NCBI GenBank assembly: GCA_043771175.1
Contig: JAYVHO010000012.1
Coordinates: 1 to 57,487, forward strand
DNA length: 57,487 nucleotides
Direction of reading: 5' to 3'
Source: a bacterium
GTDB lineage: Bacteria > Patescibacteriota > Minisyncoccia > Phycocordibacterales > UBA1006
This document shows positions 26,500 through 37,081 of this stretch, one piece after another (position 1 is the first letter of the stretch; the number at the start of each line of letters is the position of its first letter). A program made the position numbers and the translations under genes. The notes beneath the pieces were generated by a model. It saw only the letters and a program-made list of their open reading frames with translations. It searched no databases and was not told the DNA's origin.

Positions 26500-29400
26500 A
26501 TGAAAAAACCATTATGGTATAAGCAATTAACAGTACTGCTCATATGCTCACTGTTAATGCAAAACTTATTTGCTTTCACTTTGGTACACGCTCAAGAAGA
26601 AGTTGTGATAGAAACACCTCTCACAAATTCATCCTCGGTCGATGTACCTTTTTTAATACCTCAAGAAGTTATCTCTGGTGAATTACCAAATAGAACACAG
26701 GATGTTTTGCCATCTGAAGTCTTGAAAGTAGAAATACCTACTGAAACACCAAAACCACAATTATCAGATTCAGCGCCTGACATTGCACCAGATACCACAA
26801 ATTTAAATCCAGATACCACAAATTCTCTTGCCGCAGTAGCAGAAAAAGAACAAACAGGGCGTAATGCACCATCAATAACATCAGCAACTGAACCATTTCA
26901 ACAAACAGCAGTTCTTCAAAAGCCTCAGTATGTTGCTAAGCCTGATGTTGATAATACTACCGGTGCTATGAGTTTTGATATTCCTTTTGAAATTCCAATC
27001 CCAGAAATGATTGACCAAAAACTCGTTCCTCAACTTTCTCTGTCATATAATTCAAGTAATACTGCTAAAAATACCCCTTTTGCATATGGTTGGAACTTTG
27101 ATATACCAAGTATTTATCGAATTAATGAGCGTGGAACTGATAAGATGTACCAGTATAGTACAAGCCTCATGTCTTCAAAATATGGAATTATTCGATATAT
27201 AAATGATGGATATTCTGTATATAATGCTGATGTAATTCCGCAAGAAATTAAATCTAAAAACATGAATGCATATCCAAAAGAACTTGAATTCGGGTATCAA
27301 AAAGATATAACGAAAGAAACCTATCAATTATTTGCAAAGCCAAATAATGAATCGGTTAAAGAAAGTACGATAGCTGGTGATGTTGCGAATGATATTACGA
27401 GCTCGGTTATCGTTGTGGATACTACTACCGAAAATTCATTTTCTTCGTCAAATCAAGCAAAGCAAGTTTTTACACCTGCCATTGAGGTACCATCAACAAA
27501 TATAAATCCAACCGCACCAGTTTCTCAAAATGCGATGGTTCCCATTATTGATAACGGAACGCAAACAGAAATAATTTTAAATAGTGCAACCTATATTGAG
27601 CGTAGTTCCGACGGGTATATGTATTATTATGGATATGATGACAGTTCACGACAAAATTCGGCAACTGATCCATATAAAATTTATAAATGGGCACTATCCA
27701 AAATAATTAGCCCAAAAGGTGATAGGACAGAATATTATTATATTGAGTCAAATGGACAATTGTATATTTCAAATATTAAGTATGGTTTAAATACTACTAC
27801 CGACACAGGTGCCTATTCCATCGACTTTACCTACAACATGATTACACCATTTAAAGCATATGATACGGGCTTTGAGGTAGTAACGGATCGCTTGCTTTCT
27901 GAAGTGGTGGTAAAATCTATGATTACCAATCAAGTGGTATATAAATATCAACTCAATTACTCAATTGATAGCAGTTTTTCTTACAATTTATTAAATTCAG
28001 TAAATAAGATTTCTGCAACAAATTCAGAATCTCTCTACTCATTTGGTTACACAACGGGGGGTGGACAGTTTTCTACAACGGGTATTCCGATGACAACAGC
28101 AAGCGGAGGACAAAATGCAAACTGTAGTATTCAGGATTCAATTGATGGATTATGCCGTCAATTGCTTGATTTAAATGGTGATGGTTTGACTGATTATTAC
28201 ACTATTGATAATACATATGGTTATTTAACCGTAAAATGGTATATAAATAATGGTGTTGAATTTGTATATTATTCAAATTCTCAAATATCATTAAACAATA
28301 CTGGAGGTTCATATAATATGGTATTTGATGTGAACGGAGATAATATGCCGGATCTCATTACTCATGAATTAAATGGTTCTAAAAATGTTTTTATCAATAA
28401 CGGAGAAAAATGGCAATACCGATATGATTGGATAGCACCACCATTTAGTTTGCGAAATTTTTCTCTGCGGTCAGATGTCAAAAATTTTGGTGTTACCTAT
28501 TCTGATGGGTGTTGGACAGGAGAATGGAATTGTTCTGTATTTAAAGGGTTCATTTTTGATATCAATAAAGATGGATTAAATGATATTTTTAGACTTAAAG
28601 GTGCTCAAGATCAAGAGTTGTGGATAAATAATGGAAGTGGTTGGACTCTTGATACTTCAGGTAATTTTAAAATTTCATTTACGAGCTATGAAACATTTAG
28701 CACGATTATGAGCGATAATGTTAAATATAGTTTGGTTGATATTAATGGTGATGGATATGAAGATTTCTTTAAACAATCATCAGAAAATAGTACCAGCTAT
28801 ATGGCATATCTGTATAATCCAAGTAACTTGCAATGGTATTATGTTGGTGCTTTTTCGCCTTCATTTAATGTATGTGGATTGTATTCAAGCTGTCCATTTT
28901 CAATGAGTGATTTAAATAATGATGGACTGATTGATATTTTTACCAATTCTCGTATTTATCTTAACAAGGGATATGACTTTTCGCTGGTGTTTGATAGAGA
29001 TCCAAATACTGGTCAAGTAAATGTTAATAATGGGTTTTCTATGGCATCGGTGCCACATAATAACATTGCCGCATTTTCATCATTTTCTGGTAATGGTTCT
29101 GTTGATGTGTATACCACCAACAATTCCGTTCAATATACAAGTAATGGAAAAGATGGTTTTGCTACTTTAAACGGATGGAATGCTAATGAGGCATATCAGC
29201 AAAAGTTTATTGATATGAATGGTGATACTATGACGGATAAGGTTACTCAAAATGCTGTGTATTTAAATCAAGCCACAACTCCAGGATTACTCAATTCAAT
29301 TAAAAACAAATACGGTGGTGTAGCTCAAGTGAATTACAAAACATCAACTGCATATACAACGCACCAAGGATATACTGCGCCAATCAAAACTGTTGCGAGT

Positions 29401-32400
29401 ATTAATTTTATTTCATGTGCAATTACCGGTAGTAATGCATTTCAGGATACCTGTACGGAAAATGGAAAAGTTGAGTATGCCTATGATGGTGGTGTTTTTG
29501 GTTTAGATATATTTGGTAAGTCATACAATTTTTCTGGATTTAGAACAGTAAAGAAGAAAACGTATAATCAAAATAATCAGCTTTTGGATAATGCGGTATA
29601 CACCTATAACGTAAACGAAAGTACCTATCCTGATTATTATAGAAATGCCATAAATAAGTCATTGCAAGGTATCGAATATTACGGATCAAATGGAAATATT
29701 ATTAAATCATCCTATTATTCATATTATGTATTTAACCAAGATCATATAACAACGAAGCAAGAATTTAAATCGATTCGTCCATCATATGAATTTAATAGTG
29801 TTTCAAGCTCATCATCTACCATTGAGCTTGATAACAAGATATATTTTTATAATTCAACAAAGCAATTAGCTAAAGTGTGCTACGGCACTAATAATCATAT
29901 AACTGGTGATGTGAATGCGTGCGGGCTTAAAAATGATGTTTTTTTCTATACGAGTCCATACTGGGGAGAGATATTTAAAACAGAAACATATAATTCAGCG
30001 GGGTTTAAAGTAAAATCAAATGAATTTTACTATGATAATTTGGCCCTTGGTTTAACTTCGGCTGCACGCAACCTTACTCAAACGGTTGAATCAGTTGATG
30101 ATTCCAGTTTAAAAAATGAAACCTATGAATATAATTCGAAAGGAAGATTAACTAAAAAAATATTCCACGGAGGTAGAAGTATTACGTATGCATATGAACC
30201 AAATCAATTGTTTGTTACATCAGAAACGGATCAATTAGGTTACATTACTACAAACACCTGGAACTATGGTTTTGCTAAGCCACAAACTAAAACACTACCT
30301 GATGGGGGAATTATTAGTTATACCTATGATGGGCTTGGGACTCCAACGCAAACTATGCTTGCGTATGGTGTTAAGAAAAGAATCAGTCAGGTGATTGAAT
30401 ATCCATGCCAATCAGTATGTGCATCATGGCTTTCATATAGAATAGTAAGTTCATCAAATAATACCAGTAACGGTGAGAATATGTCAGAAGAATCGTATCA
30501 ATTATTAGATGGATGGGGTGAAGTAGTTTCTGAAAGAATCAATAAAGGGATTGCAAAAGGGGTTGCGTCATATGTATATTCACATACCGTGCGTGATGTT
30601 CTGGGAAGAATAATAAAAAAATCAATTCCAACGAGTTCAACCACGAAACTTTCACAAGATTATACGACAACAACATATGACACATTGTCTCGTCCCGTGC
30701 AAGTAGAAAATACACTAGGAATAGTGACCAATATCTATGATGGTATGTATGTTACCACTACAAAACCAAGCGGTAATAAAAAGATGGTGAGATACAATAC
30801 GTCAGGAGGAATCGCTGCTGTTTATGAATACCTTACACCAACATCAACACCGTTTGTCACTTCATATTGGTATGACCACAATAACAATATAAAAGGTATT
30901 ACTAATGCGGCAGGACAATCAAAATTCTTTACCTATAATCATATAGGACAATTGACATATGTTACTGATTTTAAGTCGTCAAATGACACTACCTATATGT
31001 CAAATTCGATCATATATTATATTTCATCGGGTGCAGTGTTTCAGTCAAAAGATGATGTTCCAGGTACCTCTACGTGGAATTATGTGGATAATTTAGGTCG
31101 TAGTACGATGTTGTTTTATCAAAACCCTGCACTCACAGGAAGTGCATCATTTGAAAATCGGTATTCGTACACGTATGATACTTGTGTTGGTGGTATCAGA
31201 AAAGTTTGTTCAGTAACAAGTAATAAAAATAACTATAAAGATGAATATACCTATGGAGCATTCGGGCAGATTACTACTTTTAAAAGAACACTCCTCGCAC
31301 CAAAACCAGGTGCAGCTGCGTCAGCGATCGCGTACAGCGTTTCATATGAATATAATCAACGTGGTGCTGTTTCAAAAATTATTTACCCAAACAATTCATA
31401 TGTCAGATATACGTATGGTGACTTTGAAAAGGTAGAAAATGTTTATTACTTTTCACCTATCACCAATCAAGAACTTTTAATTGGAACATATACATACAAT
31501 GCACTTGGGCAACCAGTGACGGTTGCAACTCGCCAAGGAACATATACTAATCAATACAACTCAAATAAGCTTAATCAATTATCAACAAAAACATTTAAGC
31601 GTCGTGGTGATTCAAAATCACTACTATCAACTAGTTTTATTTATGATAGTGATGGAAATTTAGTATTCATAAATGATGCACCACAAGTAGGTGATGCTAC
31701 TATGAAGACGTACCAATATGATGGCCTTGGAAGACTTACTCAATCAGGGTACAGCAATAATAATCCATCTGTTCCAAATACTACCGACACGTACACATAT
31801 GCTTCAACCGGTGTGTTAATGCAAAAAAATCTGACAACCGTAAATAAATCTCCTAGCACCACCACTACGGTAGTTACCAATTACCAATACGGTGGCACCA
31901 GTTATGAAAGCCCCTATGCACCAACACAAATTGGAGACACAACCCTTACCTATGATACCTATGGAAACGTAATTCGATATAACACCATCGGTCCAGACAA
32001 AGGAACAGAAATAACATACAACGGCTTGCGCCAAATTGAAACCGTTAAAGATTATTCAGGAGTTCAAAAAACTAAAGCGTCAACCATTACAGTATTTCCA
32101 GATGTACAAGTTAATTCACCAAGTGTTCCTTATACGTTCACTGACGAGGAGGGATCATTAGTTAATTCATTAGCAGAAGTTGACACGGCAGGTGTAATTG
32201 AACCTCAGTCAACGGTACCTGCTCCTGTGGTATCTGCAGGTGGGGGAGGAGGAGGCGGTGGTGGCGGTGGTTCACCAGGTCCAGTACCAGTACAAAAAGT
32301 TGCCGGAACTTCAGTGGTTGTTATTGATGATTATTGTCAATTGATAGAACTTGGCACTACTAATTCAAAATCACTCACATCAAATATCCTTACATTGGAA

Positions 32401-33939
32401 TCAATTTTGGTAAATAAATTGTTCCTTTCAAAAAAATACCGTGATGGAAAATGGGATATACAAACAACACGTGCAATGAAACGACTTCAATCAAAGATGA
32501 GGGTCAAGCAAACGGGGGTGTTTGATATCACAACCAAAAAAGCAGTTTCAAAAAATCTATGTAATAAGAAAGAATTAAAGAATAGTACCTTATTAAAACT
32601 ATTCTCTGAAATTAAAGTAGCGTTTGAGCCAAAGAAAGCCTATGCAGAAGTAGTCATGAAACCAGGTACTAAAATAACCGGCCCCGTATCAATCCGCCAA
32701 GGAGCGTCCCGCGGAGTCTATCAAGGAACCATCACCGGCCCCTGCACCATTGTTGGTGCCTACACCACCTGTACCACCAAATCTCTCCCTCATGCTCAAA
32801 TGACCTATGATGACAGTGGTCAAAGAATCCAATACATAACTCCAGATTCTATAGAAACCACTATAGTCCCAGAATACGTAGTAAAAAACAACAAACCAAC
32901 GCTTACTATTACCATAGAAGGAATCCCCCTCATCATCATAGAAGACTCCGCAAACACCTATCCGGTAGTAGATTACCAAAACTCTCCCAAACTCCTTCTC
33001 AACCAATACTCTCAACGTATAGAAGAACGAGACTACACTGACTACGGATCAGAAAGATACACCAGATCTACCACTCCATCATCTAAAACAGATAAAACCT
33101 ACACTAACCACCAATTAGATAATGAAATACGGTTTCAGTACTTAGGTGCACGGTACTATGACCCTGAACTATCTATCTTTCTAACGATGGATCCTGCTAC
33201 AACATACGTTCCTCAAGATATATTAAATCCTCAATCATTTAATACGTATGGGTATGCAGAGGGGAATCCGGTGATGAAGGTGGATCCGGATGGAGAAAAT
33301 GCCGTTGATGTATCTGTTGGAATAGGTACTGGAATATATGGAACCACCGTAGGTACTATACAAACAGTATGGATAATCATGGCAAGTCCATATTCAAAAG
33401 CTGCTGCCGAACAGTATCAAGAATTAACAAGTCAAACAGCTGATTTCTATATTGATGCTGGTAAAGGAGCTGCATATCTTGCTCAAGATCCACAAGGATT
33501 TACTAATGATCTTGTTACCTTAACCAAGGCAGATGGTGGTGCTGCAATAGGTCAAGCTATTGGTGCGGGGATAGGAGCAGGGATTGTGACTGCTGGGGTG
33601 GGGAGGATAAGCACAGCGGGGAGTGTGGCAAAAGTTTCGACAACTGCCGAAGTGGGAACTTATTCAACATACCGTGGATTTGATGCTAATACTGGAGCTG
33701 TAAAATATACCGGTATAACAAGCAGAAATCCAATTATAAGATTTAATGAGCATTTAAAGTCAGCAGGAACTGGAAAAGAAAATTTAAGATATAGGGTAAC
33801 AGAAGCAAATATTACAAAGAATGCAGCCAAGAAAATTGAACAAGCTGATATAAATAAATTTGGTCTTCAAAAAAATGGTGGACAATTGTTGAACAAGATA
33901 AATTCGATTGGCAAAAAGATTATAAAAAAGCTAAAATAA
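26500..33939 (+). CDS. RHS/YD-repeat polymorphic toxin (signal peptide, SpvB-like, FG-GAP/VCBS repeats, YD repeats, RHS core, GIY-YIG-like C-terminal toxin)
   Basis: Signal peptide ending VHA; VDNTTGAMSFDIPF...QLSLSYNSS...GWNF (SpvB-like); repeated DxNGDGxxD; core RYYDPELSIFLTMDP...GNPVMKVDPDG; tip YTGITSRNPIIRFNEH...IEQ...GGQLLNKINSI. Confidence 0.93.
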   Translation: MKKPLWYKQLTVLLICSLLMQNLFAFTLVHAQEEVVIETPLTNSSSVDVPFLIPQEVISGELPNRTQDVLPSEVLKVEIPTETPKPQLSDSAPDIAPDTTNLNPDTTNSLAAVAEKEQTGRNAPSITSATEPFQQTAVLQKPQYVAKPDVDNTTGAMSFDIPFEIPIPEMIDQKLVPQLSLSYNSSNTAKNTPFAYGWNFDIPSIYRINERGTDKMYQYSTSLMSSKYGIIRYINDGYSVYNADVIPQEIKSKNMNAYPKELEFGYQKDITKETYQLFAKPNNESVKESTIAGDVANDITSSVIVVDTTTENSFSSSNQAKQVFTPAIEVPSTNINPTAPVSQNAMVPIIDNGTQTEIILNSATYIERSSDGYMYYYGYDDSSRQNSATDPYKIYKWALSKIISPKGDRTEYYYIESNGQLYISNIKYGLNTTTDTGAYSIDFTYNMITPFKAYDTGFEVVTDRLLSEVVVKSMITNQVVYKYQLNYSIDSSFSYNLLNSVNKISATNSESLYSFGYTTGGGQFSTTGIPMTTASGGQNANCSIQDSIDGLCRQLLDLNGDGLTDYYTIDNTYGYLTVKWYINNGVEFVYYSNSQISLNNTGGSYNMVFDVNGDNMPDLITHELNGSKNVFINNGEKWQYRYDWIAPPFSLRNFSLRSDVKNFGVTYSDGCWTGEWNCSVFKGFIFDINKDGLNDIFRLKGAQDQELWINNGSGWTLDTSGNFKISFTSYETFSTIMSDNVKYSLVDINGDGYEDFFKQSSENSTSYMAYLYNPSNLQWYYVGAFSPSFNVCGLYSSCPFSMSDLNNDGLIDIFTNSRIYLNKGYDFSLVFDRDPNTGQVNVNNGFSMASVPHNNIAAFSSFSGNGSVDVYTTNNSVQYTSNGKDGFATLNGWNANEAYQQKFIDMNGDTMTDKVTQNAVYLNQATTPGLLNSIKNKYGGVAQVNYKTSTAYTTHQGYTAPIKTVASINFISCAITGSNAFQDTCTENGKVEYAYDGGVFGLDIFGKSYNFSGFRTVKKKTYNQNNQLLDNAVYTYNVNESTYPDYYRNAINKSLQGIEYYGSNGNIIKSSYYSYYVFNQDHITTKQEFKSIRPSYEFNSVSSSSSTIELDNKIYFYNSTKQLAKVCYGTNNHITGDVNACGLKNDVFFYTSPYWGEIFKTETYNSAGFKVKSNEFYYDNLALGLTSAARNLTQTVESVDDSSLKNETYEYNSKGRLTKKIFHGGRSITYAYEPNQLFVTSETDQLGYITTNTWNYGFAKPQTKTLPDGGIISYTYDGLGTPTQTMLAYGVKKRISQVIEYPCQSVCASWLSYRIVSSSNNTSNGENMSEESYQLLDGWGEVVSERINKGIAKGVASYVYSHTVRDVLGRIIKKSIPTSSTTKLSQDYTTTTYDTLSRPVQVENTLGIVTNIYDGMYVTTTKPSGNKKMVRYNTSGGIAAVYEYLTPTSTPFVTSYWYDHNNNIKGITNAAGQSKFFTYNHIGQLTYVTDFKSSNDTTYMSNSIIYYISSGAVFQSKDDVPGTSTWNYVDNLGRSTMLFYQNPALTGSASFENRYSYTYDTCVGGIRKVCSVTSNKNNYKDEYTYGAFGQITTFKRTLLAPKPGAAASAIAYSVSYEYNQRGAVSKIIYPNNSYVRYTYGDFEKVENVYYFSPITNQELLIGTYTYNALGQPVTVATRQGTYTNQYNSNKLNQLSTKTFKRRGDSKSLLSTSFIYDSDGNLVFINDAPQVGDATMKTYQYDGLGRLTQSGYSNNNPSVPNTTDTYTYASTGVLMQKNLTTVNKSPSTTTTVVTNYQYGGTSYESPYAPTQIGDTTLTYDTYGNVIRYNTIGPDKGTEITYNGLRQIETVKDYSGVQKTKASTITVFPDVQVNSPSVPYTFTDEEGSLVNSLAEVDTAGVIEPQSTVPAPVVSAGGGGGGGGGGGSPGPVPVQKVAGTSVVVIDDYCQLIELGTTNSKSLTSNILTLESILVNKLFLSKKYRDGKWDIQTTRAMKRLQSKMRVKQTGVFDITTKKAVSKNLCNKKELKNSTLLKLFSEIKVAFEPKKAYAEVVMKPGTKITGPVSIRQGASRGVYQGTITGPCTIVGAYTTCTTKSLPHAQMTYDDSGQRIQYITPDSIETTIVPEYVVKNNKPTLTITIEGIPLIIIEDSANTYPVVDYQNSPKLLLNQYSQRIEERDYTDYGSERYTRSTTPSSKTDKTYTNHQLDNEIRFQYLGARYYDPELSIFLTMDPATTYVPQDILNPQSFNTYGYAEGNPVMKVDPDGENAVDVSVGIGTGIYGTTVGTIQTVWIIMASPYSKAAAEQYQELTSQTADFYIDAGKGAAYLAQDPQGFTNDLVTLTKADGGAAIGQAIGAGIGAGIVTAGVGRISTAGSVAKVSTTAEVGTYSTYRGFDANTGAVKYTGITSRNPIIRFNEHLKSAGTGKENLRYRVTEANITKNAAKKIEQADINKFGLQKNGGQLLNKINSIGKKIIKKLK

Positions 33940-33940
33940 T

Positions 33941-34471
33941 ATGATGAATATACTCAAAAGATACAAACCAAAAATTGGAGATTATTACGTAATCCCAATA
34001 CATGAAAGAAATACAAAATATTACTTCCAAATAGTAGGAGTAGATGAAATACAATTGGGAAGTGAAGTAATTGTAATTCTTGATAAAGAATATAAGATGC
34101 AAGAAAATCCAACAACTGAAGAGTTAGATTCACATGCAATGTTGTTCTATACACATGTATTTGTTCCCGTCGGTGTAAAACATAAAGTTTGGGAATATTC
34201 AGGTATAAATAGTAAATTAAACGATAGATATTTAAAAGAAGAATTTAAATTCAAAGGATCTAGTGATAGTGGTGAATTAAATTATCAACTTTCTTCAGAT
34301 TGGAAAATATGGAAACTTGGTGACAAAGAATGGGCTAGTGTTGTAAAAATTCCAAAAGACTTTGTTGATTCTGAAAACGATTTAGTCTTTACACCATTAG
34401 ATGTAAAAGACAGAATTGCAAATGGTAGTTATAAAATAGACTGGTATCCTCTCTTCGAAATCGAAGAATAA
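33941..34471 (+). CDS. Immunity protein, Imm26-like
   Basis: Starts 2 nt after the toxin stop; KIGDYYVIPI...YFQIVG N-terminal pattern resembles Imm26. Confidence 0.7.
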   Translation: MMNILKRYKPKIGDYYVIPIHERNTKYYFQIVGVDEIQLGSEVIVILDKEYKMQENPTTEELDSHAMLFYTHVFVPVGVKHKVWEYSGINSKLNDRYLKEEFKFKGSSDSGELNYQLSSDWKIWKLGDKEWASVVKIPKDFVDSENDLVFTPLDVKDRIANGSYKIDWYPLFEIEE

Positions 34472-34689: not shown

Positions 34690-35643
34690 ATCATTACCAT
34701 AGAAGACTCCGCAAACACCTATCCGGTAGTAGATTACCAAAACTCTCCCAAACTCCTTCTCAATCAATACTCTCAACGTATAGAAGAACGAGACTACACA
34801 GACTACGGATCAGAACGATACACCAGATCTACCACTACATCATCTAAAACAGATAAAACCTACACTAATCACATATTAGATAATGAAATACGTTTCCAGT
34901 ACTTAGGTGCTAGATACTATGATCCTGAATTATCTATCTTTCTGACGATGGATCCTGCTACAACATACGTTCCACAAGATATATTAAATCCTCAATCATT
35001 TAATACGTATGGGTATGCGGAGGGGAATCCGGTGATGAAGGTGGATCCGGATGGGAAGGAGCCAAAACAAGGTCAACTTGCAACATTATCTCAAGTTGTT
35101 GAATATATAACCTATAAAAACATAAGTAATTATCAAAATCAAATTAGTTTCGGAGAACTAGCAAAAGCATTTGGGGATAATGTGAAATGGGATAAAAATA
35201 TTGGTGGTGGGTACGTTATGATTCAATCTGGCTCACCAAGATATATTTATACCGAAAATTCAGGATGGATTGATATGCAGCATTTCTTTGGCTCAGCCGA
35301 ATATACACAAAAATATGGTAAAAACATAACTTTAGTAGGTGGTTATTTGTTTGAATTACTTCAAGAACAAGTCTTGAAAGGACAAAAGGCATCAGGTTTT
35401 TCATACGAAGACATAACCTCAAATTATTATGGTGCTCAATTTTCAAAACAGTATTCATTAAAAATTAAAAATGGTGATATTACAGTACAAGATGCAATAT
35501 ATGAGTTTTTTAATATGATGGAACCTAAAAAACCAATTGAATCACCAAATATTGATAAAATCCCGTTTCAAACAAATAAATCCGGGCCATCTCAAAAATC
35601 AAACACTGTAAAAAAGAAAAATAATAAAAAGAAAAATAAATAG
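34690..35643 (+). pseudogene. Orphan RHS core plus alternative C-terminal toxin cassette (no native start)
   Basis: The frame is open from 34678 with no ATG until the internal Met at 34948. After DPDG comes an unrelated tip containing RYIYTENSGWIDMQHFF...FSYEDITSNYYG. Confidence 0.88.
34698..35054 (+). repeat. Direct repeat of the RHS core (copy of 32937-33293)
   Basis: 357 bp, ungapped at offset 1761, with about 17 substitutions by hand count (~95% identity); it ends exactly at the DPDG codons. Confidence 0.95.
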
Positions 35644-36734: not shown

Positions 36735-36892
36735 ATCACCGGCCCCTGCACCATTGTTGGTGCCTACACCACCTGTACCACCAAATCTCTCCCTCATGCT
36801 CAAATGACGTACGATGACAGTGGTCAACGAATCCAATATATAACACCAGATTCTATAGAAACCACCATCGTTTCAGAATACGTAGTAAAAAA
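36735..36892 (+). repeat. Truncated third copy of the RHS pre-core segment (copy of 32731-32888)
   Basis: 158 bp, ungapped at offset 4004, with mostly third-position changes. It is not followed by a core or a tip. Confidence 0.92.
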
Positions 36893-37081
36893 TCAACACT
36901 TACAATTTTTGAATAAATGGCTATAACCGCATGGTAAATACATGAGATACCATGTACTTTACAAAATATGTAATATATGTTATTATAAGTTTGTCGTGTT
37001 AGAGAACAAGCACGTAAATCCTTGCAGGTGTAAGGTGGTCAGACGTAAAACTGATCGTTCATAACTTAAAAATTAAAAAAG

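Follow-up and report, generated by a model that had tools for sequence, protein, structure and literature searches.

Within a 57,487-nt window, contig JAYVHO010000012.1 of assembly GCA_043771175.1, we analyzed a gene for an RHS polymorphic toxin whose YD-repeat shell is interrupted by an insert carrying a poly-glycine tract and a peptidoglycan-binding domain (PGBD) of the PG_binding_1 family. The source genome is a 670-kb metagenome bin with 35% GC, assembled in 23 contigs and 89.65% complete. The source metagenome sample corresponds to ENA assembly ERZ28573538. The bin's nearest DnaB relatives (54-64% identity) are Patescibacteria records, in agreement with the origin in the Candidate Phyla Radiation (CPR) presumed in a first-pass annotation made from the sequence alone. 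The labels of these relatives are mixed (Paceibacteria/Paceibacterota, Parcubacteria group, Nomurabacteria and Minisyncoccia), and many automated submissions of metagenome-assembled genomes among them are labelled 'uncultured Candidatus Saccharibacteria'.

The toxin gene is a single open frame that, by translation, encodes a protein of 2479 amino acids (aa; Table 1). The public gene call gives a 2460-aa product that begins at 26557, 19 codons downstream of the first ATG (26500); the start that yields 2479 aa is more plausible, because the public one trims the signal peptide's n-region. Pfam searches identified an SpvB domain (PF03534; residues 153-215, 37.5 bits), FG-GAP_3 repeats (PF13517; starting at residue 557, 38.5 bits) and RHS_repeat (PF05593; 22.3 bits, cut-off 22). 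The NCBIfam model TIGR03696 placed the Rhs repeat-associated core at residues 2179-2265 (51.4 bits against a cut-off of 32.5), with the DPDG junction, read from the sequence, at residues 2262-2265. An AlphaFold2 (AF2) segment model of residues 1066-2265, built from a 32-sequence alignment, predicted the YD shell with predicted local distance difference test (pLDDT) values of 70-93 over residues ~1150-1850. In Foldseek searches, the best PDB matches of the segment model were TcdB2-TccC3 (4O9X, 6H6G) and type VI secretion system (T6SS) Rhs effectors, with TMq 0.56-0.58 and E about 1e-32, and comparison of the shell model with 4O9X, 6H6G, 7Q97 and 8UY4 gave E-values of 1e-31 to 1e-33. Together, the domain hits and the structural matches of the shell indicate that the protein is a single-chain TcB/TcC-like cocoon. 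A Pfam scan of the toxin tip that follows the core returned no match. A 176-aa open reading frame (ORF), presumably the immunity gene, begins 2 nt after the stop codon of the toxin gene, within the region 33295-34471.

The YD repeats break off between IETVKDY, which ends at residue 1852, and MTYDDSGQR, which occupies residues 2101-2109 (nt 32800-32826), and the frame remains intact over the 744 nt that encode the ~248 intervening residues. Translation showed that the first-pass annotation had located these borders and the run of 11 glycines exactly. The insert consists of a first linker, the glycine run, a second linker, the Cys-bracketed PGBD and a return tail. Linker 1 contains a YD-like stretch, PYTFTDEEGS, ends in a conserved PAPVVSA strand and was modelled at pLDDT <50 in the AF2 segment model. 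A linker at the position of linker 2 is also found in paralogs and relatives, in most of which it is Pro-rich. Within the PGBD, NILTLESIL...TTKKAV corresponds to residues 1962-2016. The return tail contains a direct repeat (ATAACCGGCCCC / ATCACCGGCCCC) and was predicted at pLDDT 45-61 when the domain segment was modelled by AF2; a full HMMER scan that used residues 1925-2110 as the query and covered 1.84 billion representatives found no relative of it. Searches of the insert borders for target-site-like repeats and for a compositional break found neither.

Table 1. Features of the RHS toxin gene, its orphan copies, and other secreted proteins of the same genome that carry a Cys-bracketed PGBD.
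Feature	Location	Strand	Basis or description
RHS polymorphic toxin gene	26500..33939	+	Signal peptide, SpvB, FG-GAP propeller, YD-repeat shell, insert, Rhs core, C-terminal toxin
Sec-type signal peptide, MKKPLWYKQLTVLLICSLLMQNLFAFTLVHA followed by QEE	26500..26592	+	Translation read by eye: basic n-region, hydrophobic core, VHA-Q site
Final shell strand ahead of the insert, IETVKDY, residues 1846-1852	32035..32055	+	Strand E781-787 in the AF2 segment model; paired in alignment with the homologs' NRL....S strand
Linker 1, residues 1853-1913, Pro/Thr/Val-rich	32056..32238	+	Translation
Eleven consecutive Gly codons, residues 1914-1924	32239..32271	+	Translation
Linker 2, residues 1925-1945, 21 residues (SPGPVPVQKVAGTSVVVIDDY)	32272..32334	+	Translation
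Cys-bracketed PG_binding_1 domain, C1946 to C2021	32335..32562	+	PF01471, profile search, AF2, Foldseek
Return tail, residues 2022-2100 (79 residues), two ITGP repeats and a CxxxxxxxxC pair	32563..32799	+	Translation
YD hairpins resuming after the insert (MTYDDSGQR...)	32800..33033	+	Homolog alignment, AF2 strands
Rhs repeat-associated core, ending in DPDG	33034..33294	+	TIGR03696
C-terminal polymorphic toxin tip, ~215 residues, GIY-YIG-like motif YTGITSRNPIIRFNEH	33295..33939	+	Translation
Orphan Rhs core, copied from main-gene nt 32930-33297 and joined to another toxin tip	34691..35057	+	96% protein identity, local alignment
Orphan fragment, copy of main-gene nt 32731-32893	36735..36898	+	150/163 nt identical; 89-90% protein identity
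C8 protein	G000:C8:67918-71019		S8 protease-like protein, 1033 aa, Ig-like repeats
C9 protein	G000:C9:16994-18982		662 aa
C16 protein	G000:C16:14239-15687		G13 run, tandem PGBDs
Two C4 signal-peptide proteins	G000:C4:7450-9423 and C4:10958-11740		Cys-bracketed PGBD

Homologs were sought in 55 genomes of the family. Two of them, G025 (2025 aa) and G001 (2053 aa), align on both flanks of the insert and bridge the gap with 53 and 22 residues, respectively, compared to about 270-290 residues in the query (1828 to 2101/2117), and in an alignment at the level of single residues the insert falls in the loop that connects an NRL-type strand to the next Y.YD..G.R hairpin. These alignments indicate that the PGBD segment is a lineage-specific insertion, as had been proposed when the module was described as inserted into the RHS protein. 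A MAFFT pairing of PYTFTDEEGS with the Y.YD..G.R hairpin of the homologs was considered and ruled out, because MTYDDSGQRIQY...TIVPEY...ITIEG fits the following strands of the homologs far better. The same-genus homolog G028 (G028:C2, L022:2629-9204, 2192 aa) lacks the PGBD insert and has, two hairpins earlier, an unrelated insert of ~370 aa that is acidic and Cys-rich with a possible Ig-like part; its toxin tip is of the CdiA-CT RNase A type (PF18431, 72 bits). Database homologs with 25-29% identity hold other unrelated inserts in the same C-terminal stretch of the shell, including Ig-like domains in P0006 and an insert of about 550 aa in P0005, and P0012 has a Pro-rich stretch at the very hairpin where the PGBD insert lies. 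The variety of these nearby inserts marks the C-terminal shell stretch as a hot zone for insertions, and since inserts of 500-700 folded residues can hardly fit the lumen, the hairpin loops probably face outward. Another recurrent and undescribed insert, ~80 aa long and containing beta-helix-like repeats and paired Cys, is shared by three further SpvB/FG-GAP/RHS homologs (P0004, P0008 and P0009), where it directly precedes the Rhs core's DHLGS motif.

Wider searches were also performed. A word-indexed homolog search with residues 1780-2200 recovered only the RHS protein itself, and a scan of 185,579 species genomes with residues 1801-2267 recovered no relative. The full HMMER scan yielded 21 weak PGBD hits, all below 48 bits; when the seven long hits (1,979-3,916 aa) were scanned, none was an RHS protein and six were phage tape-measure proteins with PGBDs.

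The domain in the insert is a genuine, diverged PG_binding_1 domain, as the first-pass annotation had claimed from a residue pattern. The PF01471 search bears this out in part: the match at residues 1966-2015 stayed under the gathering cut-off of 23 bits when the whole protein was searched (19.0 bits), whereas the excised domain scored above it at 23.8-24.7 bits with E 3-5e-5 (best 24.7 bits, E 2.8e-5). All seven paralogous modules of the same genome match PF01471 (best 3.2e-11), and a profile of the genome's paralogs matched CtpB (3.6e-9), phiKZ gp144 (1.7e-7) and SleB (5e-7) in the PDB, the PGBDs of which (4C2C, 3BKH and 6TCI, respectively) belong to the same domain family and have the same fold as the domain in the insert. 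With a 29-sequence family alignment, AF2 predicted residues ~1945-2024 at pLDDT 86-98, mainly as a three-helix unit with its main helices at segment positions 36-48, 63-75 and 86-96. Foldseek ranks 1-12 for this model were occupied by PGBD-containing chains only, and the match to the N-domain of SleB had TMt 0.80, a root-mean-square deviation of 1.9 Å and prob 1.00. The Foldseek E-values are weak (0.1-0.6), owing to the small size of the domain. The motif DG.[FW]...T..A...Q....TG..D..T was tested for and is present, and the residues that are invariant (Q1997 and G2006) or near-invariant (T1989 and T2012) in the family alignment are retained. Both bracket Cys are present in 25 of the 29 family modules.

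The same combination of poly-glycine and PGBD recurs elsewhere in the genome. Runs of at least eight glycines occur only four times, and in every instance a PGBD lies further along the same ORF; a pairing in four of four cases is not expected by chance. The shared cassette comprises a hydrophobic strand ending in S-S/A, 11-13 glycines, a linker, and a PGBD bracketed by Cys. Aside from the RHS protein, it is carried behind signal peptides by the C8, C9 and C16 proteins, in which the strand ends in V-V-S-S; a V-V-S-[SA] motif ahead of the poly-glycine is common to the RHS, C8, C9 and G033 modules. The glycine run is 11 residues long in the RHS copy, C8 and C9, and 13 in C16. In C8, C9 and C16 the PGBD forms the C-terminal end, with two PGBDs in tandem in C16, and when the two C4 proteins are included, five signal-peptide proteins have a Cys-bracketed PGBD that ends the protein or lies no more than about 40 residues from its C-terminus. 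The RHS cassette is 41% identical to the C8 module and 35% identical to that of C9.

PGBDs of the type found in the RHS insert are present in all 55 family genomes, at 2-20 per genome, and poly-glycine runs of at least nine residues in 19 of the 55. At 7 of 20 unselected poly-glycine sites in relatives, a PGBD follows downstream within the same ORF. Another four sites, selected for a nearby PGBD, stand outside these 20, and the remaining sites join other surface domains. For the family of this organism, these counts (four of four runs in the genome, 7 of 20 sites in relatives) bear out the earlier statement that the combination of poly-glycine and PGBD is common among surface proteins of CPR bacteria. 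A literature search on poly-glycine/PGBD anchors in CPR bacteria found nothing relevant. Poly-glycine of 10-17 residues is also found in relatives ahead of a conserved domain that starts GRAYP[LF]S[RK]V..LKDGQ (loci L129, L130, L132, L133, L134, L136 and L141, in G006, G007, G017, G023, G024, G026 and G034). Given that it also precedes the GRAYP-type domain, poly-glycine is a general inter-domain linker of the surface proteins of the family.

Because GGN runs are common to four loci of a genome that is a 23-contig metagenome bin, assembly might have fused the RHS gene with a poly-Gly/PGBD gene by way of this repeated tract. Several observations make such an artefact very improbable. The four poly-glycine tracts differ codon by codon, and the same 2460-aa product is found on three public contigs, one of them a 197-kb scaffold of an ENA assembly, both of which argue against misassembly. 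Moreover, the RHS frame is in phase on both flanks of the insert, so that two in-frame chimeric joins would be required.

Two orphan copies of parts of the gene lie downstream of it (Table 1). The fragment at 36735-36898 opens inside the tail of the insert (TGPCTIVGAYTTC...) and continues into MTYDDSGQR, implying that the insert predates the duplication that gave rise to this fragment. This bears on whether the insert is a functionless relic, left by recombination of the RHS gene with the 3' end of a surface-protein gene and tolerated as a disordered decoration. Such a relic would be consistent with the absence of the insert from all homologs found, the predicted disorder of its linkers and the many unrelated inserts taken up by this region of the shell. 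However, the gene from which the orphan fragment was copied already had the insert tail, and the low identity of the cassette to its paralogs (35-41%) indicates an old event rather than a fresh accident. In addition, the frame is intact over the full 744 nt, and in the PGBD, which folds at pLDDT 86-98, both bracket Cys are conserved, as are the Q and G that are invariant in the family and the near-invariant T residues. We regard a functionless origin as improbable. Of the outcomes that the first-pass annotation had named as counting against its proposal, absence of the insert from close homologs was observed and, for the linkers in AF2, so was disorder; the PGBD itself matches its family and folds confidently.

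Based on the data presented above, we favor, with moderate confidence, a role for the insert as a wall-anchor cassette in a loop of the cocoon that holds the RHS toxin on peptidoglycan, most likely that of the producer itself. In this reading, a bacterium of the Patescibacteria (Parcubacteria/Paceibacteria-type) exports through Sec a TcB/TcC-like RHS cocoon made as a single chain, and the standard wall-anchor cassette of the lineage has entered a loop that joins two of the cocoon's last YD hairpins, ~80 residues ahead of the Rhs core. The conserved Cys pair at the N- and C-termini of the PGBD probably forms a disulfide, and as this would join the ends of the domain, a loop could accommodate the PGBD with no disturbance to the shell. 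The low-complexity leashes on both sides, an outgoing linker of ~90 residues and a returning one of ~80, would allow the PGBD to reach away from the cocoon, provided that the loop emerges on the shell's outer face, as seems probable; the large folded inserts that nearby loops accept in homologs (P0006, P0005 and G028) count in favor of an outward loop. The PGBD would then bind peptidoglycan non-covalently and keep the loaded cocoon on the wall, and the toxin would be displayed for contact-dependent attack, as with WapA.

The first-pass annotation had left open whether the module docks the toxin on host peptidoglycan or tethers it to the producer, and of these the tether fits better. Two things favor the wall of the producer: other secreted proteins encoded in the genome, an S8-type protease among them, terminate in the same cassette, and RHS toxins of the WapA type act likewise (PMC12704120). 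Alternatively, the embedded PGBD could be an aiming device that docks the cocoon on the exposed peptidoglycan of a host or prey of an epibiont-type bacterium. Adhesion domains among the RHS repeats or near the toxin have been proposed to enhance contact with the target (Zhang et al. 2012, PMC3482391), a long leash on either side, with 11 glycines, would suit an outward reach, and the neighboring loops of homologs hold differing Ig-like or Cys-rich inserts, as variable target-recognition parts would. The failure to find a TcA receptor-binding partner in the genome points weakly in the same direction, the control genomes having been silent. In contrast, a general self-anchor better accounts for the presence of the same cassette at the end of the S8-type protease and other generic secreted proteins; furthermore, the peptidoglycan of diderm targets is not exposed. 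Considering these points together, docking on a foreign wall is the main rival to the tether but seems rather unlikely.

Several observations weigh against the insert being an anchor to the producer's wall, or limit how firmly this can be proposed. The Pfam score of the PGBD is marginal, being under the cut-off in the full-length context, and the canonical N-terminal G-x-G..V motif of PGBDs is absent from the RHS copy. In the AF2 model of residues 1066-2265 the entire insert has pLDDT <50, and the model consequently does not place the loop on either side of the shell. No ortholog bearing the insert was found in any collection searched, and as a result purifying selection on the RHS copy of the PGBD is not measurable. 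Searches for a TcA-like partner with PF18276 and PF03538 gave no match in the genome itself, a weak negative given that the control genomes were silent too and that the genome is 89.65% complete. Finally, the evidence does not separate binding to the producer's wall from binding to that of a target.

We also considered a broader and decidedly speculative proposal, in which the last hairpin loops of Sec-exported, TcB/TcC-like cocoons of Patescibacteria serve as a plug-in zone for surface-binding domains that replace the missing TcA, and in which the strictly conserved strand, S-S and 11-glycine element is functional rather than a mere spacer. The domains counted under this proposal would be the PGBD described here and the Ig-like, Cys-rich and beta-helix-like inserts of relatives, and the element might, for example, span the wall as a hinge of fixed length or serve as a Gly-Gly endopeptidase site for release of the cocoon. 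As a joint claim, we consider this improbable.

Among the most similar known systems are the wall-associated RHS toxins of the WapA type from Gram-positive bacteria (Bacillus subtilis WapA; Streptococcus suis WapA-CT1, PMC12704120), which are wall-anchored and Sec-exported. WapA and the RHS protein share a Sec signal, an RHS cocoon with Rhs core, a polymorphic C-terminal toxin, a downstream immunity gene (presumed for the RHS protein) and orphan cassettes, as well as, in the present case by prediction, a non-covalent wall-binding module that retains the toxin on the wall of the producer for contact-dependent competition. They differ in that the CWB repeats or LysM of WapA are N-terminal and outside the shell, whereas here PG_binding_1 lies in a loop between the last YD hairpins, and in that WapA has no SpvB plus FG-GAP N-terminal part, whereas the RHS protein has a TcB-like one. 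Pfam detected neither CWB nor LysM in the RHS protein, in which the internal PG_binding_1 is the sole wall-binding domain. By analogy, the protein would be WapA-like in its working, and by architecture it would not be a member of the WapA group.

In architecture, the RHS protein resembles the fused TcB-TcC (BC) cocoons of Tc toxin complexes (Photorhabdus TcdB2-TccC3, 4O9X/6H6G; Yersinia YenB/YenC, 4IGL), with which it shares SpvB, an FG-GAP propeller, an RHS shell and an Rhs core in one chain. In contrast with these, it has its own Sec signal, and no TcA-like gene was detected in its genome in searches whose controls were silent. We know of no solved BC structure with a wall-binding domain in the shell. 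The combination of SpvB and propeller defines the class of 'TcdB/TcaC export pathway' polymorphic toxins of Zhang et al. 2012 (PMC3482391).

The first-pass annotation knew of no description of an architecture of this kind, and in kind the claim is not supported. The adhesion domains of polymorphic toxins listed by Zhang et al. 2012 (PMC3482391) include LysM, PGB1 (PGB), CWB and SH3 as well as RicinB, discoidin and bulb-lectin, and lectin domains are described there as embedded among RHS repeats or near the toxin; anchoring of WapA to the wall is likewise known (PMC12704120). The embedded domains in that list are, however, of the lectin type, PGB1 is not placed inside the shell, and neither the cassette of poly-glycine and Cys-bracketed PGBD nor a CPR setting is described there. 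Among the C-terminal PG_binding_1 anchors of Patescibacteria surface proteins, those of the paralogous secreted proteins are the same cassette, from which the RHS copy differs in being internal and in having an 80-residue return tail without homologs. What is new is thus a PG_binding_1 anchor inside the shell, between the last hairpins and on a poly-glycine leash, in a TcB/TcC-like cocoon of a CPR bacterium. The embedded PGBD is a local variation on a known theme and not a new kind of system, and the current understanding of RHS toxins is unchanged by it.

Nevertheless, the protein offers a testable case of how a cell with neither an outer membrane, a T6SS nor a TcA partner may display an RHS cocoon, namely by a peptidoglycan anchor in the shell, and it shows that whole domains can be inserted into the cocoon's C-terminal hairpin loops and be tolerated there. 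Its interest would be greater if the insertion zone proved to be a general site for docking modules that replace the missing TcA. For the family, the recurrent cassette of poly-glycine and Cys-bracketed PGBD in CPR bacteria of the Paceibacteria type aids the annotation of surface proteomes that are largely unannotated.

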